Shown here: in pieces, positions 1 to 52,791 of the stretch | Numbering within the stretch: the stretch's first letter is position 1 | Layout of the letters: each line of letters starts with the position of its first letter | Assembly: GCA_018303805.1 (NCBI GenBank) | Contig: JAGVXL010000001.1 | Span: 110,208 to 174,207, forward strand | Source of the DNA: Candidatus Pacearchaeota archaeon | Lineage (GTDB): Archaea > Nanobdellota > Nanobdellia > Pacearchaeales > DTIR01 | DNA length: 64,000 bases | Direction of reading: 5' to 3' | The notes under the pieces: model-generated | Database searches by the model: none | Told to the model about the DNA's origin: nothing | Seen by the model: only the letters and a program-made list of their open reading frames with translations | Program-made: the position numbers and the translations under genes

Positions 1-355
1 CGTGTATCTTCGGTTTTTCTTTTTTCTTGTCATAGAGCAGTTTCACAATCCCCCTTCTTTCAGCATCTTCCAGAATGTCAAGATTGCATGAAAAGTCATC
101 ATTTCCCATCATAATATAAACCTCTTTTTTGCCTTTCAATCTCTCCATTCTTGGGACAAGATATTTCTCTAGAAATACCCGTTGGTTTCCTGCCATAAGC
201 CAAAAATATTCACTGTTAGAGATTGTTTCAAATCCAACCTCTGTCCCAACCACATAATTAGGCAGAATATCCCCCCCTATAACAACGGCATCAGCTTTTT
301 CCTCAAAAAGCCTTTCATAAAGCCCTTTGCCCCCATGCAAGTCAGTTGCGTATGC
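1..355 (-). CDS. Calcineurin-like metallophosphoesterase. Its C-terminus runs off the window start.
   Basis: Reverse-strand translation from the ATG at 353-355 gives MKIAYATDLHGGKGLYERLFEEKADAVVIGGDILPNYVV...MMGNDDFS. It carries the D-x-H-(x)n-GD-(x)n-GND signature of MPP motifs I to III. The ORF track does not list it because it has no stop inside the window. Confidence 0.6.
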
Positions 356-394
356 TATTTTCATTTTCCTCTTTTTCTAAAACAGATTTTAATT

Positions 395-901
395 TTAAAC
401 CGCCATCCTATCTATAATCGAGAGATTTTTTGGAGCATTTGAAGCTTTTTTATAAGCATCATAGGCAGGCATTTTGTATGCTGCAATTTGAGTTGAGCAA
501 ATGTAATCCTTCTTTCCATTGTCTATTGCAAGCCAGCACAAGAAACCCCTTATATTGAAACCATTGCTTAATGCCTCCCTGTAATGTGCACTTTCATGCT
601 TGACAGACTCATTTATCCTTCCTGTAACAAAGCCATTTTTTTCCAAGAACTTCCGCATTTTTCCCAATGATGGAAAAATGTATTTGTCCTCTTCATAAAG
701 CATTTTAGAATATTTATTCTCAATCTCCCTCTTTTTTTGCTTGAGGAAGAAGAGGGCCTTGTCCTCATCAAAAATTCCTGCCATCAGTCTTGCAAAAGCA
801 AGATTTTCCATAGCCTTTACCTCTTTGTAGAATTCAACCAAATCAGAAAACCTCGTTTTTGGCTTTATCACCTTTCTTTTCATATATACCAAAATAGCCA
901 A
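395..901 (-). CDS. Hypothetical 168-aa protein with a lone HExxH motif (VKHESAHY)
   Basis: Full ORF. The HESAH pentapeptide resembles a zinc-hydrolase motif. I recognise nothing else in it. Confidence 0.45.
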   Translation of the reverse strand: MAILVYMKRKVIKPKTRFSDLVEFYKEVKAMENLAFARLMAGIFDEDKALFFLKQKKREIENKYSKMLYEEDKYIFPSLGKMRKFLEKNGFVTGRINESVKHESAHYREALSNGFNIRGFLCWLAIDNGKKDYICSTQIAAYKMPAYDAYKKASNAPKNLSIIDRMAV

Positions 902-933: not shown

Positions 934-1233
934 ATGAAAAAAACAAGGATTGACAGATTAGACGAATTCCTAAGAAAAGAGAACATGTCTGACCAAGCTG
1001 GAGGCACTTTCAAGACAATAGACAGTATGCTCTCGCATTTGGGAATTGACGGAAAAAAACAGAGAGAAGAACTAATCTCGCGCCTTTATTCCACTGTTGG
1101 CGTTAAGAAAGAAACCAAGGAAATGAAATCCTATGCCAAAAACTGCATAGAAAACAAAAAGGAGTTTATTCTTTATTTCAAGAAAGTTCCAAGAGGCTAT
1201 CATGCAAGAATATACCTGCCGTTAAAGAAATAA
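934..1233 (+). CDS. Hypothetical 99-aa protein
   Basis: ORF with an ATG start in an otherwise minus-strand operon. The composition looks coding. No recognisable motif. Confidence 0.3.
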   Translation: MKKTRIDRLDEFLRKENMSDQAGGTFKTIDSMLSHLGIDGKKQREELISRLYSTVGVKKETKEMKSYAKNCIENKKEFILYFKKVPRGYHARIYLPLKK

Positions 1234-1728
1234 TCACCCGAAATAGCTTCTTTCCTTCTTCTCAAAAGATGCGTTCCACGCCCTGTCTATTGCCCTGCTC
1301 ATCTCCTGGAAATCAGGATGCATTGCCTGCCATTTCTTTGCAGAATCCCTGATGAACTCTGCCTCTGCCTTCTCGTTGTATTTCATGTCAAGGGCTATGG
1401 CTTTTATCTCAAACTCGCAGACTTTCCTGTAAATCTCCTCAACAATCTTCTTGTCAGAAGCCCCAAGATGCTTTATCACAGAAAGCAGGAAGAATGGCGC
1501 AGCAGTAGGATTTATCATCAATTCCAAAAATCTCAGGAATGCAACCGCCTTTTCTGTTATCGCTTTTCTTATCTCCCTTAATAAAATGTCGGTCTCATGC
1601 TCTGCTATCCTCTCAATCTCAAATTCCTCGTTAAGCTGCTGGAAGCTTGGCAGTTTGTATTTTTTCTGCAGTTTTTCATAATCTTTCTTTAACTTTTCAA
1701 GAGAAGATTCAATCCTTAGCTTTGGCAT
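1234..1728 (-). CDS. Hypothetical 164-aa protein
   Basis: Full ORF. It is tightly spaced between the upstream 868-aa gene and the downstream genes on the same strand. Confidence 0.5.
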   Translation of the reverse strand: MPKLRIESSLEKLKKDYEKLQKKYKLPSFQQLNEEFEIERIAEHETDILLREIRKAITEKAVAFLRFLELMINPTAAPFFLLSVIKHLGASDKKIVEEIYRKVCEFEIKAIALDMKYNEKAEAEFIRDSAKKWQAMHPDFQEMSRAIDRAWNASFEKKERSYFG

Positions 1729-1802: not shown

Positions 1803-4409
1803 CTACATGACGAGTTTTAGAAAGAGCTTATTGTTCATGTTATTTTTTATCTTGTCTATATCCTTATCAATTCTCTTCTCGTAATAATCTTCAAGAAGAT
1901 TGTCTGTGATAAATTCATGGGTTGCAGGGCCTTTTCCTTTTGGCGGAACAAATGACCTTATGAATGCTATGGGGAAATAATATGGGAATCCAACCATTAT
2001 TCCAAAAGGAGAAAAACTTTCTTCCTTGTGTTTTAGCTTCCTGTCTGGGTGTTCCAATGAAGAAGGAAAACACAACTCCATATTGCGGAATGCCTTCCCA
2101 ACTGCGGGAACATGCGCATGTCCCGCATCAACTTCCCTGAAACCTTCCATTATCAAGCCGGTTTCATAAAGATACTTTGTAGCCCTCATAACAGGGTCTG
2201 TCTTGTACAGCCCGCCAGTTCCTATTTTATGAAGAGTCAGAAGTTTTCCATAATCTTTTCCATCCTTTGATGTCATATTGCTTTGGTAATAGCTTTCATA
2301 ACCGAGAAGCCTGACACCTGTTGAGCCCTCATCAAATTTTGAGTCAAGCCCAGCATGGAAATTTAAATCTTCTAATATTTTTTCAAGCGCATTGCTGTTC
2401 TTTTGCTCTGGGATTGATTCTCTTATATAAGCAGTTATTGCTTGCCTTACCTCTTCAGAGATGTGATTGCCTTGCAGCCATATCAAACTCTCTTTTAACC
2501 TGCTTTTCTTTACAATTTTCTTGTCAGCGTCTTCCCCAAGATACCTATATACGTTCAATTGCCGCTCTATATTTGGCTTTATAAAATAACCCTCTCTTGC
2601 TGCCCCATAGTACTTCCCAAATTGGATAAAATCACCAAGTTTAGCCCTTAGGTCAACTAAACCAAAATCAGCCAATTCTTCTACAATTCTGTTAAATGAG
2701 ATTGCCGCCTCCCTCCTCATAACATCCTTCCCGATATGCTCGTCACCATGCTTTATGCTCACAGCAAAACATTCATCGTCTTTTGCTATATTGGAAATTT
2801 TTCCTATTTCCTCCAGATTAGGGAATGTAAAACGTGGCGTATGAGAGTGGTAATCTAGTATTGCTGCGCCGCTTGTCGCCCCCCATTTATTTGCCAAGCT
2901 GCTGTCCTCGCTTATCTTGCCGTTTTTTCTTTCCTTATCTATATCAAAGAAAGGACCGAGCAAAACAAGGTGTTTCTGTTTTGCAGAATCCCCTACAGAG
3001 AATGGCTGTGCATTGAAAAGGTGATTGTCCCCAACAAGAATTACATCAATGCCATTAATTTCATCTATTCCAAGGTTTGTAGAGTTTCTCCTGGAATAAG
3101 TTTCTACAAATTTTTCCCTTTTTCTATCCAAAACCTTATTGCCATCACCTTTTCCTGAGGGGTTTTTTACAAGAACATTTACATTATTGTTCAAATTTAT
3201 GATTTCGCCGTTAGGATGGATTTTTAAGTTTTTATGAATTTGTTTCAACAAGCCAATATACTTTTCCTCGCTTAACTTCTGCAAGGCATTAACTAAGTCT
3301 TCTGGGACTCTCCTCTTTACAATTCTGCCGCTAACCGCAATATACTCTTCATCAATATCATGCAGTAGGGTTTCAATGTTATTGGAATAGCGGCTTATCT
3401 TGTCTATGAACTGTGTTGTCTCCTTCCATTCCCAGTCGGTGATATCCTCAGATAATTTTTTAATATCTTCCGATGGAAAAAACTTGCTTATCCTCTGCTC
3501 TACTTCACCAAGCTCCTCTTTTGATTTAACACTTTGATTTTTAATTGCATTGAGCCTTTCTTCTATTTTTTCAGAAGTGTCAAATAGATAATTGCTGAAT
3601 CTTTGGGAGTATCTTTCCTCAGCGGCAGTTTTTTTCTGCGCATATTCATTGTTTGTCTCTTCTTCCCCTTCTTTTATCCTCTCTTCAATAGATTTCTTTT
3701 CTGAATCTAAATTCCGCAGTTTCTTTTTTAGTTCAACTCTTCTATTGTCTGCAATCTTTTTCTTGTCAAGTTCTTTACGCAGAACCTTCAACTTGTGGTT
3801 TATCAGATAATAATTCTCCTCCTCTTTAATCTCTTTTTTTTGGCTCTTTAAAGCATGATTATATTCTTTATCAAGATGTTTTGTAGTTGTTATTATTTTT
3901 GTCTCAGCCTTTTCTGACAGTTCTCTTGTTTTATTGACATACTTTACTATATCCTTAAGATTTCTTCTTGTTGTTGCCAGACCATTAACGAAGACATCAA
4001 AAAGAGAGGAGTATATCTCAACCATATTTGAAAGGTCTTCTGGACCGAGAACATAGTGGGTGTCTTGCTCCATATCACCAAATAAATTTTTGGTTGTTTC
4101 AATCATATCCTCCAGCTTTTTTCTAGGTCTTCTTTTGAAGTGAGTTTTTGAGTAATAATCATAATATTGTGGCAAAATTCCTCCCGCAATTATCAAAGGT
4201 AGATTAAACTCTTTTGCGAGCTTTTTAGTATCCTGCCACGCATCCTCGTTGAAATAATCAGAAGCAAATTTAGGATTTGATATGGCAACAAAGGAAGATT
4301 CGCTGTTTTTCAGTCTTTTATAAGGATTTCGTGTGAATTCAAGCCTGTTAGAAAGCCACTTATCAATTATTTTTCTGTCCTTTTTTCCATTCAAACTCTC
4401 TTTTTGCAT
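1803..4409 (-). CDS. 868-aa protein with a K/E-rich coiled coil at the N-terminus and a metallophosphoesterase (Mre11/SbcD-like fold) domain at the C-terminus
   Basis: Residues about 160-420 are heptad-like and strongly K/E/R-rich. The C-terminal 380 aa contain ordered MPP motifs: VILVGDNHLF (D-x-H), KHGDEHIG (GD), WLQGNHISEE (GNH) and VDAGHAHV (GHxH). Confidence 0.7.
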   Translation of the reverse strand: MQKESLNGKKDRKIIDKWLSNRLEFTRNPYKRLKNSESSFVAISNPKFASDYFNEDAWQDTKKLAKEFNLPLIIAGGILPQYYDYYSKTHFKRRPRKKLEDMIETTKNLFGDMEQDTHYVLGPEDLSNMVEIYSSLFDVFVNGLATTRRNLKDIVKYVNKTRELSEKAETKIITTTKHLDKEYNHALKSQKKEIKEEENYYLINHKLKVLRKELDKKKIADNRRVELKKKLRNLDSEKKSIEERIKEGEEETNNEYAQKKTAAEERYSQRFSNYLFDTSEKIEERLNAIKNQSVKSKEELGEVEQRISKFFPSEDIKKLSEDITDWEWKETTQFIDKISRYSNNIETLLHDIDEEYIAVSGRIVKRRVPEDLVNALQKLSEEKYIGLLKQIHKNLKIHPNGEIINLNNNVNVLVKNPSGKGDGNKVLDRKREKFVETYSRRNSTNLGIDEINGIDVILVGDNHLFNAQPFSVGDSAKQKHLVLLGPFFDIDKERKNGKISEDSSLANKWGATSGAAILDYHSHTPRFTFPNLEEIGKISNIAKDDECFAVSIKHGDEHIGKDVMRREAAISFNRIVEELADFGLVDLRAKLGDFIQFGKYYGAAREGYFIKPNIERQLNVYRYLGEDADKKIVKKSRLKESLIWLQGNHISEEVRQAITAYIRESIPEQKNSNALEKILEDLNFHAGLDSKFDEGSTGVRLLGYESYYQSNMTSKDGKDYGKLLTLHKIGTGGLYKTDPVMRATKYLYETGLIMEGFREVDAGHAHVPAVGKAFRNMELCFPSSLEHPDRKLKHKEESFSPFGIMVGFPYYFPIAFIRSFVPPKGKGPATHEFITDNLLEDYYEKRIDKDIDKIKNNMNNKLFLKLVM

Positions 4410-6725: not shown

Positions 6726-9437
6726 TTATATTCTTTTCGGAAATAGGATTTGATACAAAGCCTTGATACTCTCCCCAGTTATTGGTGCTGGTTCTGGTGC
6801 AGGAGGCGCTTCAGGTTGTTGAGTTTCAGCCATTGGTTCTGTATTAGGTTCAGGAACAGTCTCAGGCCTTTCTTCAGGTGCTAAAATAGGCTCGTGTAAT
6901 TCAATCCTTTCAGCTTTCTCTTCTATTTCTTGAATATTATCTTCTATATCTCTGATTTCCTCTTTAATCTCCTCCGCCCTCTCTGTATCTGGTTTTATTT
7001 CCTCTGCATTCCTTTCAGCCCTTTCTGCAATCTTGTTTATTTGTTCATTTGTTATGTATGCTTGGTTTCCCTCTTTGTCTACTATCATCCTGTCACCGTT
7101 TTTCATCCTCTCTTCATTTATCTTGGACATGAGTATATCACAGGCAGACTCATCCATAACCCCCATATCAATGCATTCTCTTGGCAGTCTTACTTCACCT
7201 CTTTCCTCAAGAGTTTTTATTCTTCTCAAACACTCTTCCTCCCCTTCCTTGCATGCCCTTTCAACCTGCTCAAGTCTTTCCAATCTCTCTGTTTGCTCAA
7301 GTCTTTCAGTTTGTGGAATTATAATGCCTTTTTCTTCCATAATCTTCCTGCATTCTTCAGGCTCTTTTCCCGCACATTCAGGAGGCATGTTAATTCCTAT
7401 TCCTTCCTCTCTTCTTTGTTTCTCCATAAATCTGCCGCAATCGTCTGGGTTCAAGATATTGGCTTCACGACAAGGGCCTGGAATATTCTCATTCACAAGT
7501 TTGCTTTCTAGAATATGCTGGCATTCTTGTGGTGAAACAGCTTGTCCATTTACAACACATTCTCTTGGGATGTTCGAAATATCACTAGGAGCAGGAAGAG
7601 TAATTCCCATATCCGCCAGAGCCTTATCACACTCCATTCCTCTTACAAAATTTACTCCCCTCTTGCATACATCAGGAAGGCTTTCAAAATCAATTCCCAA
7701 TCTCTCGAGTTCAGGAGATAATCTAACCATATTCTTTGCCATTACCCTTGCACATTCTTCTGGCTCTGATATTCCCTCTTCTTGGCATTCTTCTGGCATG
7801 TTTTTCTTTATTTTCCAGGCATCACATTCCTCTCTGCTGAATATGCCAGCGTCTTTGCAGTCTCCTGGCAGAAGAACCCTTTTGCATGCTTCAGGTGTTA
7901 ATGCATTTGCATCCTGGCAATCTTGAGGAAGATATTTCTCCATTATAAAACTCTCGCATTCATCAAATGTCAAGCCAACGCACTCTTGAGGAATTCTCAT
8001 CTCTCCACTCCATCCACCTCTTGTTCCTCTTGCGTATCCCCCTTGCTCTCCCTGTTGTGGCTGAGGCATTCCTCTTTCTCTCATAATTTTATTGCATTCT
8101 TCTTGGGAAACTGGTTGCCCGTCTCTTATACATTCCCGGGGTATATTACCAACTGCCTGCCCGGGCATTCCTCTTTGAGGCATAATCCCCAATTCATTCA
8201 TTATTTCCATGCATTCATCAGGTGTGACTGGTTTTCCATCTTTGATGCATTCCTGCGGAATGTTCTCCATTCCCCCTCTACCCCTTTCCACCATTATTCT
8301 TTCGCATTCCTCTCTTGGGATTGGCTTGCCGTCTCTTATGCATTCTTGCGGTATCTTGCCGCTTCTCATCATCTTCTCTTCGCATCTCTCAGGACCAATG
8401 AACTCACCATTTTCCATGCATTCTGTTGGTGGCGGCCCATATTTTCCAATCATAATCTTCTCACATTCCTCCTTTGTCGTTGCTCCTGCCTCTATGCATT
8501 CGCTGGGGGCATGCTTCTCCATCATAATCTTCTCGCATTCCTCCCTTGTCTGCGCATTTGCCTCTACACATTCTGGAGGGGCAATTTTTTCAAACATCTC
8601 CTTTTCCTTTTTATTAATTAAATCATCCATTGTTTTTTGAAAGAACGGCTTGAGAAAAGCAGGTATGTTGCTTGGAAGTTCTGGCTTTATATCCCTTAAC
8701 TCTTTGCAGGCAGAATCATCCTTTTGGAATTCGCATCTTATTGCCAATGCCTTGCTTTTTTCGCAGTTTGCCCTTACATCCAATATAGGAATATCAGAGC
8801 AGTCACATTCTCTTGGGTCATTGATGCATATTGTCATTTGCTCAACCATTTTTTGGCCAGCTTCTTCCTGCTTCTTCTTTACTTCTTTGTCAATCTTATC
8901 CCTTAACCATGGGAGAGCATTTTCTTGGTTGCATTTAGGCTCTTTTAACATCAAATCGTAATCCTGAATTGCCAATTCCTTGCATAATTCAAGAACCTTG
9001 TCAGAGAGTTCTACTGCAAACTGTGTTTTTTGCTCCTCGCTAAGATGCTTTTCTAAATAAGCTGAAAATTCAGGGTTAATTTCCTTGCTTTCCATAATCT
9101 TGTCAATTACTTCTTGAACACTAACATTTATATTGGAGGACATATCTGGAGAAGACTCTTCTTGAATAATCTTCAATTTCTCTTTTGCTCTCTCCAAATC
9201 CTTAATTGCTTCCCCTACATTTCCAGCTTTAATATTTTCAATTGCCGCATTAATGTCCTTTTCTCTTGCTTCTAATGCCACTTCAGCCTTTTTCTCGCCA
9301 GTTGCAAAAAATATTCTCAAATCATCAACAATCCTGCCTGTAATGGAGTAAAAAGAAACAGGTTGCGCGGCGACAACATTAGAGAGCAGGATAAACATCA
9401 TGAAGAAGGCGATTATCTTTCTCACTTCCTTTCTCAT
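6726..9437 (-). CDS. Secreted 903-aa protein with at least nine tandem two-cysteine 'EC...EC..IM' modules, an N-terminal coiled coil and a Pro-rich C-terminus
   Basis: Signal peptide MRKEVRKIIAFFMMFILLSNVVAAQ. Repeats of the form IPQECIRDGKPIPREECERIMVERG, IPQECIKDGKPVTPDECMEIMNELG, IPRECIRDGQPVSQEECNKIMRERG, PPECVEANAQTREECEKIMMEKH and others. C-terminus PEAPPAPEPAPITGE. Confidence 0.7.
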   Translation of the reverse strand: MRKEVRKIIAFFMMFILLSNVVAAQPVSFYSITGRIVDDLRIFFATGEKKAEVALEAREKDINAAIENIKAGNVGEAIKDLERAKEKLKIIQEESSPDMSSNINVSVQEVIDKIMESKEINPEFSAYLEKHLSEEQKTQFAVELSDKVLELCKELAIQDYDLMLKEPKCNQENALPWLRDKIDKEVKKKQEEAGQKMVEQMTICINDPRECDCSDIPILDVRANCEKSKALAIRCEFQKDDSACKELRDIKPELPSNIPAFLKPFFQKTMDDLINKKEKEMFEKIAPPECVEANAQTREECEKIMMEKHAPSECIEAGATTKEECEKIMIGKYGPPPTECMENGEFIGPERCEEKMMRSGKIPQECIRDGKPIPREECERIMVERGRGGMENIPQECIKDGKPVTPDECMEIMNELGIMPQRGMPGQAVGNIPRECIRDGQPVSQEECNKIMRERGMPQPQQGEQGGYARGTRGGWSGEMRIPQECVGLTFDECESFIMEKYLPQDCQDANALTPEACKRVLLPGDCKDAGIFSREECDAWKIKKNMPEECQEEGISEPEECARVMAKNMVRLSPELERLGIDFESLPDVCKRGVNFVRGMECDKALADMGITLPAPSDISNIPRECVVNGQAVSPQECQHILESKLVNENIPGPCREANILNPDDCGRFMEKQRREEGIGINMPPECAGKEPEECRKIMEEKGIIIPQTERLEQTERLERLEQVERACKEGEEECLRRIKTLEERGEVRLPRECIDMGVMDESACDILMSKINEERMKNGDRMIVDKEGNQAYITNEQINKIAERAERNAEEIKPDTERAEEIKEEIRDIEDNIQEIEEKAERIELHEPILAPEERPETVPEPNTEPMAETQQPEAPPAPEPAPITGESIKALYQILFPKRI

Positions 9438-14962: not shown

Positions 14963-15835
14963 TTACTTAAACACAATAGAAGCATACCCCACAGCATTGC
15001 CATAATCTCCTGTCAAGTCAGCAGAGGTGTAATATTTTAGCAATCTTGCATTCCTGCTTCCAAGCAATCTGCAAATTTCAATTGCCGCAGAAATGCAGGC
15101 AGCCCCGCATATAGTCTTGCCAGAACAGTATTCAAGAAATTCTTTTGTTTTGAATTTGGCAATTAGTTCTATTGCCTTGCCATCCATCTTGTAAAGATTT
15201 TCCTTTGCATTGCCTGAAAAGGGCAGAAAACCATACGCAGAGCCATAGTGTGTCATATCCCCTGAAGCAATAATGCAGATTTTTCTTTTCAGTTTTTCTG
15301 CTGTTTGAACAATCAGCTTTGCAAATTCAGCATAATTTTTATAATCCTGCTGCTGGCAAATTATCGGAACAATTTCAAACTTACCATGCAAAATAAACTG
15401 CAGAAAAGGCAACTGCACCTCAATACTGTGTTCTTGCTGATGAGCAAGTTTATCTCCGAGGGTATTACCAACTGAAAATCTTTTCCCTTTTCTTTCTAAA
15501 ATAAGTGCATCATAAAATTCCCTATCATTCTTAACAACGCCAAGAGGAGTTTCAAAATCTTCAGAACTCAAGGCAAAATTTGACTCTGCATAGCCAGTAT
15601 GGTTTGTTCCAAGAATTACAAATGTGTCCGCCTTTGCAGATTCTGTAATCGCCTTGTAAGAATGGGCAGCGCACATGCCAGAATAAGCATAGCCGGCATG
15701 CGGCGCAACAACACCATAAACATTCTTGCTTTTGGTGTATGCTGCTTTCCCAAGATAATCCCCAATCTGAGTTTGCAATCCCTTTTTATTCGCAGGATAA
15801 AAACTTCCTGCAACTGTCGGCTTTCTTGCACTCAT
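14963..15835 (-). CDS. MEMO1-family protein (AmmeMemoRadiSam system protein B-like)
   Basis: VAGSFYP, VVAPHAGYAYSG, VILGTNHTGY and HSIEVQLPFLQ are the hallmark Memo/AmrB motifs. 290 aa. Confidence 0.8.
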   Translation of the reverse strand: MSARKPTVAGSFYPANKKGLQTQIGDYLGKAAYTKSKNVYGVVAPHAGYAYSGMCAAHSYKAITESAKADTFVILGTNHTGYAESNFALSSEDFETPLGVVKNDREFYDALILERKGKRFSVGNTLGDKLAHQQEHSIEVQLPFLQFILHGKFEIVPIICQQQDYKNYAEFAKLIVQTAEKLKRKICIIASGDMTHYGSAYGFLPFSGNAKENLYKMDGKAIELIAKFKTKEFLEYCSGKTICGAACISAAIEICRLLGSRNARLLKYYTSADLTGDYGNAVGYASIVFK

Positions 15836-17133
15836 TTTATAACCCTTAATTTTGTAACATCCATATCTTTTATTTCTTCTCCATTCCTCACAAAATTAAG
15901 AAGCCCGTTAATATCCCTAATTCTCCTCTTTGTTTTTGCAAACGCCTTGCCATCCTTGACAAAAACTTTTTTGTATTTTTTCTTAAATTTCAGCAGGTTT
16001 ACAATTCTGTTTATTGGCGGGCCTGCAACAATCATCCCAGAAGAAGGTTTCCTGTAAACAGCATACAGTTTTGCCTCCTTCCTCTTAAACTCAATCTCTT
16101 TTTCCAGGACATCAAAGCTATTTTTCCGCATCAGGAAAGCAATAAAATCAAAGAACCTTCTCAGTTTTGCCGGAGCAACTTCCTCTTTTGACTTTTCTGC
16201 TTTTGCAGAAATAACTGCAAGCAATGCTTTTCTTCTCCTGGCATTCTTAATAATTTCCTCTCCTATATCTTTCTGCTCAAATGATTTTTTTCCAGGCTTC
16301 GCAATAAATTCTTTGCATGCATCAATAAACTTCAGGAGAGTTTCTGCAGAAATAGAGGCAGTTGCATTTCTTATTGCATAAGTAGGGTCAACAAGGATAA
16401 TTGGTGAAACTAGCTTTGCCTCGTTAATTTGCAGCAGGACATCATCAGCATTTTTATAATGCCTTGCCGGATCAATGACAATCTTTTTTCTGTTTTTTAG
16501 CATTACCTTCCATTTTACAGCATTCTTGGCGAGGTTCATTAAACTTCCAAAATGCAGGACAAGCAGTTCAAGGGCATATCCAGAAAAACCCTGAATGTGT
16601 GATTCTGCCCCATAACAATTCTGCGCATAGCAGAATGCCTTTGCCAGGCGGATCTCATCGGCGATTTTGTCGTTTATATGTTTTGAAGCATAATTCACAT
16701 GAAAAAAGGACAAATCCGTAACATTTCTTGCCTCCTGAGGTTTTTTAATGGCAAGCACAGGCACAATTTCAAAAAGAACAGGTTTCTTTCCCCCTGCAGA
16801 AAAATGGAAATAATCCCTTGAGCCATGAATCTTCTTGTATTTTATTTTCTGCAATTTAAGCGCTTTTTCCAGCATATCGCTTAACTGGCTGTCTCTCTCA
16901 GCATACTCTTTATATTGGAACCTCACAAAGATATCTATATCATATCTTTCCTTTTTTATCAGTGTGTTTTTAGCCAAGCTGCCGCCTAGAAACACATCTG
17001 CCCTGCAATGAGCTTTTTTTAATCCGGCTTCAATTTTCTTATTCAATCCGGCAGTCAGCTCTTTTATATTCTTCAATTCTTGTTCAGACGGCTTTATTTT
17101 TTCAAGCACAGAATAAAAAATCTCTTTTTTCAT
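15832..17133 (-). CDS. cca: Archaeal class-I CCA-adding tRNA nucleotidyltransferase
   Basis: 433 aa. N-terminal EKIKPSEQELKNIKEL...LGGSLAKNTLIKKERYDIDIFVRF matches the archaeal CCA enzyme G[SG]xxxG...DxD signature and length. Confidence 0.8.
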   Translation of the reverse strand: MKKEIFYSVLEKIKPSEQELKNIKELTAGLNKKIEAGLKKAHCRADVFLGGSLAKNTLIKKERYDIDIFVRFQYKEYAERDSQLSDMLEKALKLQKIKYKKIHGSRDYFHFSAGGKKPVLFEIVPVLAIKKPQEARNVTDLSFFHVNYASKHINDKIADEIRLAKAFCYAQNCYGAESHIQGFSGYALELLVLHFGSLMNLAKNAVKWKVMLKNRKKIVIDPARHYKNADDVLLQINEAKLVSPIILVDPTYAIRNATASISAETLLKFIDACKEFIAKPGKKSFEQKDIGEEIIKNARRRKALLAVISAKAEKSKEEVAPAKLRRFFDFIAFLMRKNSFDVLEKEIEFKRKEAKLYAVYRKPSSGMIVAGPPINRIVNLLKFKKKYKKVFVKDGKAFAKTKRRIRDINGLLNFVRNGEEIKDMDVTKLRVIK

Positions 17134-19958: not shown

Positions 19959-22676
19959 TTAAACCTTTCGGTGTTTGAACAATATTGGAAACTTAAATAA
20001 TCTTGATTTTAATTTTACCTCAGGCATTCCAGTTTTGCCGCCTTTTATCTTCTTGAAAACATAATCTATTTGTTCAATGCTCCATCCTGCCTGTTTCAGC
20101 CTGCCCTTTGCATCTTTTTCAGCCCCGCCTTTTCTTAGAGCATTGCCAAAAAAAGAAATCAGGTTGTGCAGGTCTTGTTGGTTCTTGAACAGATACTTCT
20201 CATACCTTGTTTTGTACCATTTTTGCAGCAGTGAGTAAATTGCAATCATTAGGGCTATCACAATAACAAGAAGGAATACAGCAATTCCAACCGGCTTGCA
20301 GTCTACCCTGCAATCTCTCCAGTTTTCTCCCAGCTTTTTTTCGCAGATTCTGTTGCTGTTGCATACAACCTCCTCTTTGATTTCAAGGTCTGATAAGTAG
20401 GGGGATGCAAACACAACAAGATTGCTTAAGTCAACTCTGCCAGCCAAGGCAAAAGAAACTACTTGGTCTGCCCCTATACTATTGAAGACAAAGCCAATGC
20501 TGCCTGCGGCATCTCTCTGCCCATATTCAGATGCAAATACAGCAGTTTCGTAAGGGGCAAGAATAATAACGTAATACTCATTTAAAGAGGCAAGTGGTTT
20601 GATTCTAAGGGTGATTAGTGTGGCTATGTCCTTTTCCTTGTCATTTTCATCACTGGCACTCACAATTCTGGAGGTTGCTGTCATTGCGATATTCTTGTAT
20701 TGCCAGGACCATATAGCGTTTCTTGTCTCCTCTGCAAAATTAACATCATACACGCCGCCATTCAAGCTTTCAATCAATTCCGGCTTTATGGAGTTTATAT
20801 CCACAGCAACAGGCATTTCTGCTGCAAATTCTGAATCATACACTGATTTTGCCAGTATGAAACCCTGCACTTTTGAAATTAAGTCAATATACTCTGTATC
20901 CGCTGCTGCAAATTTGAACTGGTTTTCATAGCCAGTCAGCAAGGCGTCATTCTCAGAAATGCCTAATTGTTTTTCAAGTAACAGCCTGTACCAGCCGGCC
21001 CCCATAACTTCTCCTTTCAACGCTTCCAGCAATATTCTTTTTTCTTTTAGCGTTGTATTCAAAATCTCCTTGGGTGAACCAACCATTATTTCAGAACTTT
21101 TGCTTCCTTTTAGGCCCTGAGAATCAGTTACTTTTACAATCACCTTAAAATTGCCTATTTTTTTATACGTATGGTTAATAGAACCTGCAGTGCTTGTTTC
21201 ACTGGCACCATCTCCAAAAATCCATTCGTAACCCACAAGGGAATTATTTTTTGGGGAATACGCTTCAACAAAGAAATTAACAGTTGTTCCAGCACCTGTA
21301 TTTAATGCAATCAGGTTCTTGATGGCAGGAACCCTCTCGATTGAAACCTTCTCTTCACCTATTTTCTTGCTACCTATAAAGAGCCCAAAAAGCTGTTCGC
21401 CGTACTCATCTGCAGAGAAATTCGCAGCGCTTAAATCAAGTTTTGTCAGATTCATATCCACCATAGCAGGCTTTCTTGCCAGCCCAAAGATATTCTGCTC
21501 TGTTGTGCATAACCCCTGGGCGCAATAGCTTAGCTTGAAATCTTTAAAGGCAATCCCATTTGAAGAGATTATTTTAATGGGGACTATGCATCCGCCAACG
21601 CAATCGTTTGCATATCTTTTTTCTATGTATTTTTTTATCAATTCGCTTGCGCTTGCGGCCCCTAATCTAGAAAATTCCTGCTCATTGAATTTTATTGTTT
21701 CGTTTACAGGGGCGATTCCAGTTCCTTGGACTAGCAGGGAAAAATCTGCGCTTGCGTTTTTTGTTGCGCTAGGCAAGCCACTGTAGCCACACGCTGGTGC
21801 GGAATCCTCAGCCTTTATTGTATATGCACCATCCAAAAAATCATCCCTGATGCATGCATAATATTCCTGCGTGCCGCTGAAAACATTAAAATCAACCAGG
21901 CAGCTTTCCTCAATATAGGAGGTTGTATTTGGCTCAGGCATGTCGCATTCTGCCTGATTGCCATTTTTATTGTCATAAATAAAAGCAGCTAAATCCCCCC
22001 CTCCCTTATTCTTCCTGACCAGCGCTGAAAGTTTAAATCTTGAGGAGGCAGGAAGGAAAATCTTTTGGCAATAGGGGGAAGTTGTTATGTCCAAATCAAG
22101 ACTTGCCGCAGTGTTATCATAGCAGCTGCTGGGCTTCAAGCTTCCGCAAAGTTCTCCTGCTCCTGTATGCATCCAGTCGATGATGCCATCTGAAAGCAGG
22201 TCAATTTGTAAAGGGCTTGAGCCGCACGATACAGCCCCCCCGCTTCCTTGCATGCTGAATTCTACGGCATCTGATTTGATTTCAATCTGCTTGCCTATTA
22301 TCATTCCTCCGAGGATAGTGTCTCCAGAGCCGAGAATCTTCTGCTTCATGCTGCTGCCAGAAGTTTCATAATACTCTTTGCAATCCACTGGATTGCAATA
22401 GAAATCTTTCTCTGCCTGCAAGCCATTTTTCTCCAAAAATTCCATTAAGGTGATATTTTTCCCAAGTGCTGCGGCGATATTGTCCGCGGGCTCATTGGAC
22501 AGGCTCAGATTGACCAAGCCTTCAATAGCACCGCCAATACCGTAAATTGTCCTGGTTAATGCCATGCTGCTGTCTAACACCTCTGCTTTGGCAGCTGAGA
22601 AAATCATTAAATTAAAGACAAAAATCAAAAAAATACCCAAACCTAACTTGTTCATTTTTCCTCTTTGGTTTAACAA
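19959..22676 (-). CDS. 905-aa surface protein with a PKD domain, a signal peptide and a C-terminal TM anchor
   Basis: Signal peptide MNKLGLGIFLIFVFNLMIFSAAKA. PKD motif GYEWIFGDGASETS...NHTYKKIGNFKVIVKVTDSQG. C-terminal TM GIAVFLLVIVIALMIAIYSLL followed by a basic tail. Confidence 0.75.
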   Translation of the reverse strand: MLNQRGKMNKLGLGIFLIFVFNLMIFSAAKAEVLDSSMALTRTIYGIGGAIEGLVNLSLSNEPADNIAAALGKNITLMEFLEKNGLQAEKDFYCNPVDCKEYYETSGSSMKQKILGSGDTILGGMIIGKQIEIKSDAVEFSMQGSGGAVSCGSSPLQIDLLSDGIIDWMHTGAGELCGSLKPSSCYDNTAASLDLDITTSPYCQKIFLPASSRFKLSALVRKNKGGGDLAAFIYDNKNGNQAECDMPEPNTTSYIEESCLVDFNVFSGTQEYYACIRDDFLDGAYTIKAEDSAPACGYSGLPSATKNASADFSLLVQGTGIAPVNETIKFNEQEFSRLGAASASELIKKYIEKRYANDCVGGCIVPIKIISSNGIAFKDFKLSYCAQGLCTTEQNIFGLARKPAMVDMNLTKLDLSAANFSADEYGEQLFGLFIGSKKIGEEKVSIERVPAIKNLIALNTGAGTTVNFFVEAYSPKNNSLVGYEWIFGDGASETSTAGSINHTYKKIGNFKVIVKVTDSQGLKGSKSSEIMVGSPKEILNTTLKEKRILLEALKGEVMGAGWYRLLLEKQLGISENDALLTGYENQFKFAAADTEYIDLISKVQGFILAKSVYDSEFAAEMPVAVDINSIKPELIESLNGGVYDVNFAEETRNAIWSWQYKNIAMTATSRIVSASDENDKEKDIATLITLRIKPLASLNEYYVIILAPYETAVFASEYGQRDAAGSIGFVFNSIGADQVVSFALAGRVDLSNLVVFASPYLSDLEIKEEVVCNSNRICEKKLGENWRDCRVDCKPVGIAVFLLVIVIALMIAIYSLLQKWYKTRYEKYLFKNQQDLHNLISFFGNALRKGGAEKDAKGRLKQAGWSIEQIDYVFKKIKGGKTGMPEVKLKSRLFKFPILFKHRKV

Positions 22677-22722
22677 GTATACAATAATTTATAAACTTTT
22701 TCCAGAAAACAAAACTTCCATT

Positions 22723-24912
22723 CTATAATTTTTTCTTGGATATTGTGAACATATAATATATTATGATTATTGTTGCAGCAGAAATTAGGTTTGCAATACT
22801 GAAGAAAGGCAACCTTGAGATTGCTGTACCGCATCTTATTTCTTTATAGCCAGAGCTGCATTGCTGCTGGGCTGTTTCATTTGTTTGCATTTCTATTGGC
22901 AGGATTGCAGCAGTCCAATTCATGTTTTGTACACCTGCGATACAGCCACTTAATGAAAAGGATTTCATGCAGGTTATGAAAGGAACATTCCCCGGGATGA
23001 TTTTTAATACTTCATAATTAAACCTGCAGTCCCCGGAAGGATTCCCAGCCGGCCCCCATAGGCATTTACAGCTTGAAGAATTAATTAAGTAATTTCCAAA
23101 AGTCCTGCCGCAGATATCTGTGCCAAGCCCTTTCCCAATTGGTTTGCCTAAACCGAGCGAATCTGCGTTGCATGCACTTTCGCCTTTATAATCAGAACAT
23201 GAAGACATCCCAGCAGGATCCACACATGAGCCATTAAGCCATGCACACCCATATTGCTCGCATTCAACAGAAGAATTATAACTTCCGCAATCGCTGGGCC
23301 TCTCTGTGCATGCTGCTCCTACAGCTGGGCAATAAAAGCCCCTTGGGCAGCAGTCATCTGCAGTCAATGCCTGCTTATCTGGGCCTTCGCAATTTTTTAT
23401 CATGGTGTCATAATATGTTGTTTCATTAGCGCAGAAATAGTGCTTGCTTACTACAGAACAGCTATCTAACGGCACAAATTCAAAAGTGCCATCAAGCGGA
23501 ACCTGGCAGCCGCTTATATAGAAGGTAGTTTCAACTGATGAAGTCGGCTCAGAATCGTCAACAGTTAATTTTACAAGGTGCTCTCCAGATGTTGAGAAGA
23601 GCTTTGTGAAATAGGCTCCTTCAATCCCTTTTGCAGAATAAGGATAACTGCCATCATCAAATTCCCATTTGAATATCAACTGGTTAAATGGCGTGATATC
23701 ATCAATGCTTAAAGTTGCATTGAATGTGACGAGCATGCCAGAAAATTTCTGGGAATATGCAGGCTGGGATATTATCGCGAGAGGAGGATCATCTGCGGAA
23801 GAATTTATCATGATGCCTATTTTTGTTTCAGCTGTTTTGCCTCTTGAATTTTGAACAGTCAGCGTTACAAATTTCGGTCCGCCTGAAGAAAAGGCATGTG
23901 TTGTGTTTGCAAAATTGCTTGTATAGCCATCGCCAAAATCCCATCTTGTGCTTGTTATTAAATCATCAGCATCATAACTGCCAGAAACAAAATTTATTAC
24001 CTCGCCAAGATTGAAAATGCTTCCTTCAGGCGGCTGCGAGATTGCTGCAACAGGTGGCGTGTCATCTTCTGTGAGGCTGACACTTAACAGTTCTGATTCC
24101 AAATATACAGAGGGTGTTATGCTCATAAATGATTTAAACTTGTTGCCGTCACTTGCTCCATCCTGGCATAACTTTACTTTCCATAATAGAGATGCCTTGC
24201 CACTTTGGGAATAGCTGCTGTAATAATCTTCGTAACATTTTACCAATCCTTCTTCCCATAAAGTAAAATTAACAAGCATGCCTTCAGCATTAGTTGTTTC
24301 TGCCACAAGCATTATATAATCATTGACCTGTGTCTGGTTAATCTTGACGCCTGCCAAATCGGTCCAATACACTGCTGTAACAGAAGGGCATGAAGCAACA
24401 CAGTTGCTATTGAGAACATAATCACTTGCAGAATTGCAGCATGCCTGGGTGCCGTCACAGCTTCTTCCATTGCCTGTTCCTGCATAAAACTCATTTGTAT
24501 CATCGCCGCAGCACTGTCCCTGCAAGCCAGGCTCAAATGGGATTGCCCATCTTCCAGTTCCAACCTTGCATTGGCAGTCAGCAGAATCAGAATCCCAATT
24601 TACATTATAGGCATTTGTAGGGCCTTGATTTGTTACCCCGCCAGCTTCACAATTTGACTGGGCATAACAATACACATCCCCTTCCTGCCCGCATTGCACG
24701 CCATTCGCAGCATTGCAGCTTGCAGTGTTGCTGCTTGACACTTGCCCTGAATCGCATGCATAGCCTCCAGAACCAGCATTATACATGCAATATGCCCTTG
24801 TCCAATATGCTACACTGCTATCTGCTTTAACTAGCAATGAAGAGAGGATAATTAGTAACACAATAAATAGCCCAACAAACAGAAAATTAAATATTTTAAC
24901 CGCTTTTCTCAT
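22723..24912 (-). CDS. 729-aa Cys-rich surface protein with two PKD domains and a C-terminal TM anchor
   Basis: Signal-anchor MRKAVKIFNFLFVGLFIVLLIILSSLLVKA. Two PKD domains: TRWDFGDGYTSNFANTTHAF...LTVQNSRG and FKWEFDDGSYPYS...LVKLTVDDSE. Many Cys. C-terminal TM. Confidence 0.75.
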   Translation of the reverse strand: MRKAVKIFNFLFVGLFIVLLIILSSLLVKADSSVAYWTRAYCMYNAGSGGYACDSGQVSSSNTASCNAANGVQCGQEGDVYCYAQSNCEAGGVTNQGPTNAYNVNWDSDSADCQCKVGTGRWAIPFEPGLQGQCCGDDTNEFYAGTGNGRSCDGTQACCNSASDYVLNSNCVASCPSVTAVYWTDLAGVKINQTQVNDYIMLVAETTNAEGMLVNFTLWEEGLVKCYEDYYSSYSQSGKASLLWKVKLCQDGASDGNKFKSFMSITPSVYLESELLSVSLTEDDTPPVAAISQPPEGSIFNLGEVINFVSGSYDADDLITSTRWDFGDGYTSNFANTTHAFSSGGPKFVTLTVQNSRGKTAETKIGIMINSSADDPPLAIISQPAYSQKFSGMLVTFNATLSIDDITPFNQLIFKWEFDDGSYPYSAKGIEGAYFTKLFSTSGEHLVKLTVDDSEPTSSVETTFYISGCQVPLDGTFEFVPLDSCSVVSKHYFCANETTYYDTMIKNCEGPDKQALTADDCCPRGFYCPAVGAACTERPSDCGSYNSSVECEQYGCAWLNGSCVDPAGMSSCSDYKGESACNADSLGLGKPIGKGLGTDICGRTFGNYLINSSSCKCLWGPAGNPSGDCRFNYEVLKIIPGNVPFITCMKSFSLSGCIAGVQNMNWTAAILPIEMQTNETAQQQCSSGYKEIRCGTAISRLPFFSIANLISAATIIIIYYMFTISKKKL

Positions 24913-52522: not shown

Positions 52523-52689
52523 TTTTTCTTAGCTATTTTTTTGTTGTTATTATGGTTCTTCCTCGGCCTGTCCCAGTAGGGAGACTTGCATTTTGGGCAT
52601 ACTTTCGGCTCATTCTCAAAATTCTGTCGCGGCAGCCATGCATGATTGCATCTCTCGCAAAGATACCCTAAAATCCTAGTTTTTCCCAT
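52519..52689 (-). CDS. Small (about 56-aa) C4 zinc-ribbon protein, translationally coupled to the giant surface-protein gene
   Basis: MGKTRILGYLCERCNHAWLPRQNFENEPKVCPKCKSPYWDRPRKNHNNNKKIAKKK. Its stop overlaps the ATG of the 1424-aa gene (ATGA). It is shorter than the ORF-track cutoff. Confidence 0.4.
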   Translation of the reverse strand: MGKTRILGYLCERCNHAWLPRQNFENEPKVCPKCKSPYWDRPRKNHNNNKKIAKKK

Positions 52690-52791
52690 TATACCCCTTT
52701 CTAATTCTTACCTATTGGTAATATACTAATTAAGTATAAACTTTAGTATATAAATTTTGCTATATTACTATTGGCTGGGAACTATGAGGCC

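Follow-up and report, generated by a model that had tools for sequence, protein, structure and literature searches.

Candidate two-lobed metallophosphoesterases with a predicted coiled-coil arm in DPANN archaea

Background

Metallophosphoesterases (MPPs) are among the best-studied hydrolase folds, and the reduced genomes of DPANN archaea hold much that has no annotation. What activity resides in a long and nameless protein of one such archaeon is the question raised by a locus near the start of a 64,000-nucleotide stretch from Candidatus Pacearchaeota archaeon (contig JAGVXL010000001.1, positions 110,208 to 174,207; hereafter the window). The open reading frame (ORF) concerned is:

1803..4409, minus strand: whole ORF, 868 residues plus stop (MBS3090292.1, hypothetical protein J4433_00800, Candidatus Pacearchaeota archaeon)

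A first-pass annotation had described its product as an N-terminal globular domain, a K/E-rich coiled coil and a C-terminal nuclease-type MPP domain, devoid of an ATPase and encoded in an operon with a second MPP. On balance we lean toward reading the gene product as a cytoplasmic, DPANN-specific, two-lobed MPP, in which a predicted live lobe (lobe 2) would be joined to an apparently dead lobe (lobe 1) that carries a coiled-coil arm; motif conservation and structure prediction are the grounds for this proposal. That the ORF is a real gene was borne out, as it starts with ATG and specifies a protein identical to the 868-residue product called on six contigs of independent assemblies, the longest being 591 kb. 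TATA-like boxes lie upstream of it. The G+C content across the window is 32-43%, and the window also encodes an archaeal RNA polymerase subunit A, PolB, a CCA-adding enzyme and an SMC-type ATPase; it is part of the chromosome of a DPANN archaeon.

A rare and unannotated family of DPANN archaea

The 868-residue protein (the query in what follows) has no match in Pfam, NCBIfam or the sequences of the PDB, its C-terminal 449 residues retrieved no Pfam family at E-values up to 10, and every source carries it as a hypothetical protein, in agreement with the earlier remark that its architecture was not a recognizable one. Literature searches likewise returned no description of the family. An exhaustive phmmer search with the same 449 residues against 1.84 billion representatives recovered 10 proteins (E 8.5e-220 to 5.8e-10), one of them 71% identical to the query (P0002) and nine 27-33% identical (523-963 residues), and the latter nine align with the query across its full length rather than at the C-terminus alone. 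A later search seeded with P0006 added a clade of 620-635-residue proteins, with three further members (P0012-P0014). The family was recovered only by the exhaustive search of representatives: word-indexed searches returned the query itself and P0002 when started from the query, and P0002 alone when started from an alignment (A2). A pattern scan gave two loci in genome collections and none in metagenome collections, and the phage and plasmid collections searched held no relatives. When searched against the PDB, the full-length family profile returned only helical proteins, and the C-terminal profile only a non-significant alignment, to Rv0805.

Every 90% cluster that was looked up had a single member, and all were labeled “hypothetical protein” and nothing else. 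Where a record names an organism, it is one of the Pacearchaeota, Woesearchaeota or Aenigmarchaeota, all of them DPANN lineages, and the remaining contigs hold archaeal housekeeping genes. The family is a rare and unannotated one of DPANN archaea, and presents an unusual architecture built from a known fold.

Two of its genes are irregular. P0002 (L003:1911-3887), the closest relative of the query, is a 658-residue ORF whose first ~45 residues are the GTP-binding N-terminus of EF-1alpha (PF00009, 9.3e-11), fused in frame from about query residue 257; it lies on a 4-kb contig beside the gene for ribosomal protein S7 and is probably an assembly chimera. In a Candidatus Aenigmarchaeota metagenome-assembled genome (JACRMZ010000044.1; L014:7653-9378) the family gene is broken into two ORFs (7653-8789 and 8809-9378), of which the NCBI annotation shows only a 373-residue fragment, MBI5355267.1; either a pseudogene or a sequencing error accounts for the split.

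Lobe 2, a predicted metallophosphoesterase with a complete active site

The catalytic portion assigned to the query, its five motifs and the helix that follows occupy these positions:

1905..2774, minus strand: lobe 2, catalytic metallophosphoesterase domain, residues 546-835 (from alignments, model and Foldseek)
2736..2744, minus strand: MPP motif I, D556-E-H558 (in HGDEHIGK), invariant
2631..2636, minus strand: MPP motif II, G592-D593 (LGDFIQ), invariant
2463..2471, minus strand: MPP motif III, G647-N648-H649, invariant
2226..2231, minus strand: MPP motif IV, H727 and the family-specific K728, both invariant
2112..2123, minus strand: MPP motif V, G763-H764-A-H766, invariant
1806..1904, minus strand: C-terminal helix, residues 836-868, with the conserved pattern LLxxxYxExI (from alignment and model)

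Residues D556, H558, G592, D593, G647, N648, H649, H727, K728, G763, H764 and H766 are invariant in two alignments, one of 11 family sequences (A1) and one of seven (A7) that adds two more homologs and includes short forms. Lobe 2 retains in this way the seven di-metal ligands of an MPP (D556, H558, D593, N648, H727, H764 and H766) together with the motif-III histidine, H649, all of them invariant among homologs at just 21-33% identity; the metal-coordinating residues, on which the earlier assignment of this domain turned, are all in place. The spacing of the motifs is ordinary (DxH -35- GD -55- GNH -79- H -37- GHxH), the residue following GNH varies within the family (I, D, E, G, S, A), and motif II takes the form GDxxQ, with Q596 replacing the usual second Asp of GDxxD. 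Basic residues K728, K736 and R758 are invariant, and R742 nearly so, in the 11-sequence alignment. The motif series originally read as GDNH, GD, GNH and GHAH holds for its C-terminal MPP signature, which is invariant, but not for its first two members: “GDNH” is spurious (see below), and the “GD” at residues 555-556, taken for the second motif, is part of motif I (D-E-H), the real motif II being G592-D593.

Homologs of the query are recognized by the Pfam MPP model, PF00149. P0006 scores 33.9 bits with it (residues 305-523, model positions 4-190 of 191; cutoff 21.5) and P0003, at 24.4 bits, also passes the gathering score of 21.5, while P0007 remains under that cutoff at 19.1 bits. The matches of P0006 and P0003 cover exactly the region homologous to lobe 2, and the query matches these two proteins at E 5e-27 and 7e-34, respectively. 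An AlphaFold2 model of the query, computed from the 11-sequence alignment (mean pLDDT 76.4, pTM 0.72), gives lobe 2 the strand and helix order of an MPP: strand-helix-strand-helix-strand with motifs I-III, helices, three strands with motif IV at their end, a helix, three strands with motif V at their start and then two strands, with a single helix of ~30 residues C-terminal to the lobe. When this predicted structure was compared with the PDB by Foldseek, MPPs were matched at probabilities of 0.75-1.0, the best match being PolD DP1 (9f2a_A, E 1.9e-4, 457 aligned columns), followed by purple acid phosphatases at 3.8e-4 (1ute) to 2.7e-3, and by GAP50, Mre11 (7zr1_B) and SMPDL3A/B at 3.3e-3 to 0.12. 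Against BFVD, viral metallophosphatases and SbcD-type exonucleases were returned from E 2.4e-5, with target-normalised TM-scores up to 0.55.

Because the motifs are invariant, homologs score with PF00149 and Foldseek returns MPP folds, lobe 2 is a member of the calcineurin-like MPP superfamily with a complete active site. It shares with PF00149 proteins the five motifs in their canonical order and spacing and a modeled resemblance to MPP structures. It departs from typical members in that the query lies below detection by every sequence model tried, in the GDxxQ form of motif II, in family-specific loops (NYxGAxxEG after motif II, HK at motif IV, GDKxDPxxRT and PxKTDSxYGxxxGFP) and in its fusion to a ligand-free lobe with a coiled-coil insertion. 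No MPP subfamily stands out: DP1, purple acid phosphatases, Mre11 and SMPDL3 are all matched at similar weak Foldseek E-values, which leaves the original label “nuclease-type” unestablished.

The position of DP1 at the head of the PDB matches, and the presence of Mre11, viral SbcD and DNA-repair exonucleases among the others listed by Foldseek, could be taken to mean that the protein is a highly diverged ortholog of Mre11/SbcD or of PolD DP1 that acquired a low-complexity insertion. We regard this as very improbable, in view of what sequence models, structure and gene neighborhoods have to say. The SbcD, Mre11 and DP1 models of NCBIfam and Pfam gave nothing for the query or, in the case of Mre11/SbcD, for the 11 aligned members, and the PDB sequences of these proteins were unmatched even with the family profile, so that by any sequence model tried the protein is neither a DP1 nor an Mre11 ortholog, in keeping with the first-pass annotation. 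The TM-scores are just 0.25-0.39. The insertion sits in a separate ligand-free lobe that is foreign to Mre11 and DP1. In none of the 13 loci whose neighborhoods were compared does an SMC_N, Rad50/SbcC or DP2 gene adjoin the family gene, and the sole SMC-type ATPase of the window is encoded 30 kb away and unlinked.

Lobe 1, a split lobe resembling an MPP fold

The residues ahead of lobe 2 contribute a further globular unit in two separate halves:

4044..4322, minus strand: lobe 1, N-terminal half, residues 30-122 (strand 38/40-44, helix 55-67, strand 72-75, helix 99-110, strand 117-120)
2775..3242, minus strand: lobe 1, C-terminal half, residues 390-545 (three strands, helices, three strands, helices, two strands)
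3021..3032, minus strand: “GDNH”, residues 460-463 (only G460 conserved; non-catalytic)

The separate N-terminal globular domain of ~150 residues in the first-pass description has to be replaced by half of a split lobe, completed by residues 390-545. In the C-terminal half the predicted elements are strands 395-398, 403-406 and 410-415, helices, strands 456-459, 466-470 and 479-483, helices, and strands 514-520 and 525-528; a second AlphaFold run, on residues 1-545, gave the same order of elements as the full-length run gave for that part. The order of strands (E) and helices (H) predicted for lobe 1 is common to both lobes, namely E-H-E-H-E / helices / E-E-E / H / E-E-E / ... / E-E. At the positions of the MPP motifs, lobe 1 displays SNPKF, AGG, GPED and VGDNH, with no metal ligand set. 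Because the element order of lobe 2 is repeated and the ligands are missing, lobe 1 (30-122 plus 390-545) looks like an MPP-like fold that has lost catalysis. A Foldseek search with the 1-545 model gave, among the top 25 PDB matches, globular neighbors that include MPP folds: SMPDL3B at E 0.09, the B-subunit of Pol epsilon at E 0.11 (probability 0.90) and 6v8p_F, a subunit of a Pol zeta complex, at E 0.17 (probability 0.80).

The tetrapeptide “GDNH”, earlier taken for the first catalytic motif, follows strand 456-459 of lobe 1, at the place taken by motif V in lobe 2; it is not within the catalytic domain, and homologs read GNNH, GKDV, GNDH, GNDF, GYFM, SNDH, GHDT and GRDK. Conservation in lobe 1 resides elsewhere: in its N-terminal region W58, G77 and D125 are conserved, and in its C-terminal half the motifs GPFxDVxKAR (GPF at 486-487), TSG (513-514), D519 and R526-F-T. 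Residues 395-470 may be read as beta1-3, alpha, beta4-5, an OB-like arrangement, though they are paired with the beta-alpha-beta-alpha-beta N-terminal half, and in the model the two together fit an MPP-like lobe better than an OB fold.

The coiled-coil arm

Between the two halves of lobe 1 lie:

3486..4043, minus strand: coiled-coil arm, residues 123-308 (two helices of ~90 residues, turn at 215-220; K/E-rich, no CxxC)
3243..3485, minus strand: helical base of the arm, residues 309-389 (helices 314-322, 328-356 and 370-389)

Residues 123-389 are predicted to be helical, and the two AlphaFold runs place long helices at 123-214 (123-197/200-214) and 221-308. Lysine and glutamate make up a fraction of 0.30-0.40 of residues 151-300, and the strongest hydrophobic period in residues 123-308 is 3.5-3.65 residues, a periodicity matched by 0 of 1000 shuffles. 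The K/E-rich coiled coil of the first-pass annotation stands as a long helical segment, but as a predicted hairpin inserted in lobe 1 and not as a linker. Both halves of lobe 1 are retained in the short family members (620-635 residues), in which query residues ~140-364 are missing; the coiled coil is therefore a lineage-variable insertion within that lobe, and neither an inter-domain linker nor the core of the family's function. A K/E-rich helical segment of ~230 residues is found in the 800-960-residue forms and none in the 620-635-residue Aenigmarchaeota-type forms, the length of the insert varying within the family between 37 and 250 residues. K365 and Y384, at the point where the chain returns to lobe 1, are conserved, and the apex of the arm (215-220) is not conserved in the 11-sequence alignment. 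No family member has a transmembrane-like segment.

The arm is predicted to be an antiparallel hairpin of ~13 nm, and its Foldseek neighbors are arm fragments of SMC, Smc5/6 and JetC proteins at weak E-values of 0.01-0.2. The original epithet “Rad50-like” fits this predicted long intramolecular antiparallel coiled coil, as seen in Rad50 and SMC proteins, but extends to neither a zinc hook, a hinge nor an ATPase head. No member has a CxxC (the query has two cysteines in total), no Walker A motif ([AG]xxxxGK[ST]) was found in the query or any genuine family sequence, and there is no SMC_N or AAA match; the absence of an ATPase had been correctly recognized. We accordingly reject a zinc hook and an ATPase as parts of this system, both being absent from the family.

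With the Mre11-Rad50/SbcCD complexes the family would share the combination of an MPP catalytic fold and a long antiparallel coiled-coil arm, and Mre11 and viral SbcD are among its structural neighbors. Mre11-type MPP nucleases act as dimers, and by analogy the two-lobed single chain could imitate an MPP dimer. Pressed to its limit, this analogy would make the protein a single-chain, ATP-independent counterpart of the Mre11 dimer plus Rad50 arm, whose pseudo-dimeric head processes DNA ends and whose arm tethers or bridges DNA or recruits replication or repair partners, a minimal machine in a genome-reduced DPANN archaeon; we hold this to be speculative and improbable. Unlike in Mre11-Rad50, the arm and the MPP form one polypeptide, the arm being inserted in the apparently dead MPP-like lobe rather than in an ABC ATPase; and unlike the arm of Rad50, it is ~90 residues per strand, has no Walker A, zinc hook CxxC or hinge associated with it, and is dispensable in part of the family.

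A closer precedent for the hairpin is WipA of Legionella pneumophila, an MPP with an inserted alpha-helical hairpin of 85 angstroms whose tip is a coiled coil and which mediates dimerisation; WipA is a protein phosphatase (PMC5454105). Its only lobe is active and PPP-like, with GDxxDR and GNHE, and it is a secreted bacterial effector, whereas the hairpin considered here is predicted to be about twice as long, resides in a second, inactive lobe and belongs to a cytoplasmic archaeal protein. There is no detectable sequence relationship between WipA and the family.

Genomic contexts

We examined the gene neighborhoods of 13 family loci by all-against-all BLAST of the neighboring proteins. A short MPP gene lies near the family gene in the window and at L007 only (38% identity over 86 residues), so that the pairing of a long with a short MPP, which the first-pass annotation had thought worth following, recurs in just two of the 13 loci. 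A Fap7/AK6-like P-loop kinase (GTPGTGK[ST], PF13238) is encoded directly downstream of the family gene at L006:11141-11671 and L007:3667-4113, the two kinases being 45% identical and the adjoining long-form family proteins themselves just 26% identical; this adjacency could be a chance association with housekeeping genes or a weak functional link. A 341-residue protein with a borderline AAA_17 match (L004:12164-13189) is encoded 1.4 kb downstream of a third long-form gene. At L010 the family gene is divergent from a gene for a PD-(D/E)xK protein and stands beside RtcB and Archease. The four Aenigmarchaeota-type loci have a block in common, comprising DnaG-like Toprim genes, Hjc, a 171-residue protein, the family gene, Orc1/Cdc6, a ~270-residue protein and PolB; PolB follows in L014-L016, and the L017 contig stops at the family gene, leaving the downstream part out of view. 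There is no conserved operon, nor is there a defense context, as no defense model matches and the neighbors are housekeeping genes. The defense role entertained at first found no further backing in PADLOC, which gave the query only weak matches over the coiled-coil region that we take for noise (LmuB E 0.0036, ZorA E 0.014-0.041), or in the phage and plasmid collections.

The 171-residue protein is encoded directly upstream of the short-form gene, between Hjc and the MPP gene, at L014:7064-7579, L015:6618-7133, L016:1000-1515 and L017:3553-4068. It belongs to no Pfam family and is 89-99% identical between these loci, against 53-97% for the family gene itself; such strong conservation suggests that it may be an essential protein that has escaped annotation.

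The proximity of the Aenigmarchaeota-type genes to Orc1/Cdc6 and PolB is the context in which a mainly non-catalytic role deserves to be weighed, namely that of a scaffold comparable to inactive MPP folds such as polymerase B-subunits, Vps29 and GAP50, with the coiled coil and the lobes binding proteins, for instance replication proteins. One lobe is devoid of any metal ligands, as is a B-subunit; inactive MPPs (GAP50 and the Pol epsilon, zeta and alpha B-subunits) are among the structural neighbors, the B-subunits being listed for both models; and in Aenigmarchaeota, as reported by Kazlauskas et al., PolB has an inactivated DP1-like subunit as its partner (PMC7544198). We nevertheless consider a scaffold quite improbable. 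The invariance of seven ligands and the motif-III histidine at 21-33% identity speaks of selection on catalysis, the opposite of B-subunit decay; no member matches PF04042 (DNA_pol_E_B) at E-values up to 1-10; and the long-form genes have no polymerase gene next to them. Unlike DP1 and the B-subunits, the family has no DP2 gene and no CTD-bearing polymerase adjacent in most loci, its active site in lobe 2 is intact, and the domain ahead of the active lobe has a predicted beta-alpha-beta-alpha-beta half that is foreign to the OB fold. Identity with the inactivated DP1-like group of Aenigmarchaeota (PMC7544198) was considered and rejected, since all motifs are kept here and PF04042 is unmatched; as far as tested by sequence, the two appear to be different families.

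Proposed mechanism and substrate

We propose that the protein is most likely an active phosphodiesterase, possibly one acting on nucleic acid. In MPP chemistry a metal-bridged water or hydroxide, aided by the motif-III histidine, hydrolyzes a phosphoester. Lobe 2 would bind two metal ions and hydrolyze a phosphoester bond via a metal-activated water in the manner of other MPPs. Lobe 1 is probably docked onto the active lobe in the way in which one subunit of an MPP dimer is docked onto the other, and would supply the conserved surface motifs GPFxDVxKAR, TSGxxLLDY and SxRFT. The arm probably serves oligomerisation or the docking of a partner rather than catalysis, for which WipA offers the precedent. 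The most speculative step concerns the substrate, which may be a nucleic-acid end or backbone, making the protein a repair or replication exo- or endonuclease, or an end-healing phosphodiesterase. We lean to nucleic acid tentatively, at somewhat less than even chances, because of the DP1/Mre11/SbcD structural neighbors, the replication and repair cluster of the Aenigmarchaeota type and the conserved basic residues around motifs IV-V. None of these bases is strong, and a role as a phosphatase or nucleotide phosphodiesterase is nearly as likely.

The latter role would retain the architecture set out above, and make of the protein a phosphoprotein phosphatase or a phosphodiesterase of small molecules or nucleotides (cyclic nucleotides, dinucleoside polyphosphates or phosphorylated metabolites), with the hairpin as a dimerisation or docking arm. 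As an explanation of the protein as a whole we rate it a possibility, if a doubtful one. Purple acid phosphatases and SMPDL3 are structurally as close as DP1 and Mre11; Rv0805, a cyclic-nucleotide phosphodiesterase, is the sole PDB sequence that aligns with motifs I, III and V, at a non-significant E of 3.3; WipA is an MPP phosphatase that dimerises through an inserted hairpin (PMC5454105); and the Fap7/AK6-like kinases (L006 and L007) and the second MPP (window and L007) could fit nucleotide metabolism. On the other hand, the PPP signatures GDxHG, GDxVDRG and GNHE are absent, the family having SDxHxGK, TGDxxQ and GNH instead; no phosphatase or phosphodiesterase family gives a significant sequence match; the kinases adjoin the family gene in just two loci and Fap7-like kinases are housekeeping proteins; and the context of the Aenigmarchaeota type is one of replication and repair genes.

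Returning to the two-lobed MPP with a live and a dead lobe, several observations weigh against it. The assignment of lobe 2 to the superfamily proceeds by transitive homology, motifs and a medium-confidence model, the query itself matching no sequence model, and the effect of a GDxxQ motif II on catalysis may differ from that of GDxxD. For lobe 1, a comparison with lobe 2 by hhalign gave E ~0.5-0.6, which is not significant and leaves an internal duplication without signal; Pfam returned nothing for the coil-deleted lobe; and its Foldseek E-values as an MPP are only 0.09-0.17. Lobe packing and hairpin geometry were read from DSSP strings and pTM only. As for the substrate, purple acid phosphatases match the model as well as DP1 does, so that the predicted structure does not constrain it; the four loci with the replication cluster represent one lineage, with family proteins 53-97% identical, and amount to a single observation; and no neighbor is conserved across the family in the 13 loci.

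The family escapes every curated model tried and appears to unite features that have not been described together, namely an intact MPP lobe, a second MPP-like lobe that appears dead and, within the latter, a hairpin like the arm of an SMC protein. If the lobes do mimic an MPP dimer, they would provide a natural case of tandem evolution of an enzyme and a pseudoenzyme in the MPP fold, and the coil-bearing and coil-less forms would offer a ready comparison for the role of the arm. To place a conserved “hypothetical protein” of 800-960 residues in a superfamily, and to point to its active site, would be of use in the annotation of DPANN genomes, and should the substrate prove to be DNA ends, the family would bear on how DPANN archaea conduct repair and replication with a minimal gene set. 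Its general importance is limited because the family is very rare (10 of 1.84 billion representatives, plus P0012-P0014).

Neighboring and other genes of the window

Downstream of the gene for the 868-residue protein lie:

1234..1728, minus strand: ORF of 164 residues, all-helical, next downstream of the 868-residue gene
934..1233, plus strand: ORF of 99 residues, a gene in the public annotation, which interrupts the run of minus-strand genes between the second and the third
395..883/901, minus strand: ORF of 162-168 residues with HESAH (HExxH), downstream of the 99-residue ORF
1..364, minus strand: stand-alone MPP, first 121 codons of 314 residues, cut by the window edge (full gene L001:14046-14990)

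The two small ORFs, one with HESAH, and the second MPP on the same strand were correctly noted in the first-pass annotation, but within the window the second MPP starts at 364 and not at 355. A single operon is doubtful, as the opposite-strand 99-residue ORF, which occupies 934..1233 exactly, intervenes, and the 74-nucleotide gap that separates the 3' end of the 868-residue gene from the 164-residue ORF holds a T5 run and a TATA-like box. The 164-residue ORF has no Pfam match and no homolog beside the family gene in any of the 12 other loci; it is a neighbor and not a conserved partner. The HESAH ORF likewise has no family match in Pfam, NCBIfam or PADLOC and no counterpart in those 12 loci, and its HExxH is a single motif without support. 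The stand-alone MPP has the motifs DLHG, GGD, GNDD, H213 and GHIH and scores 30.8 bits with PF00149 (cutoff 21.5); when the family profile was compared by hhalign with the two short MPPs, no signal emerged.

Farther into the window, 32092..34965 on the plus strand encodes the 957-residue SMC-type ATPase (PF02463 at 1.4e-50), with RNase HII upstream. Its best NCBIfam model is SMC_prok_A at 524.7 bits (cutoff 729), the Rad50 models reaching just 42-89 bits. It has no SMC-hinge match, and the mid-coil sequence ELDICPLCKTK contains a CxxC like the zinc hook of Rad50; an SMC-like head is in this way combined with a motif resembling a hook where a hinge would be expected, in a protein ~200 residues shorter than a canonical SMC. 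A 903-residue protein (6726..9437, minus strand) has a hydrophobic N-terminus and many Cys-containing repeats (~P-x-E-C-I...G....EEC...IM) with no Pfam match; like the large PKD- and Big_9-domain proteins encoded at 19959..24912 and 48248..55233, it is probably a surface protein. The CCA-adding enzyme (15832..17133, minus strand; tRNA_NucTransf2, 1.2e-27) also matches the SMODS nucleotidyltransferase model at 3.6e-7 and 31 bits (cutoff 26.5), probably by cross-matching at the level of the fold.

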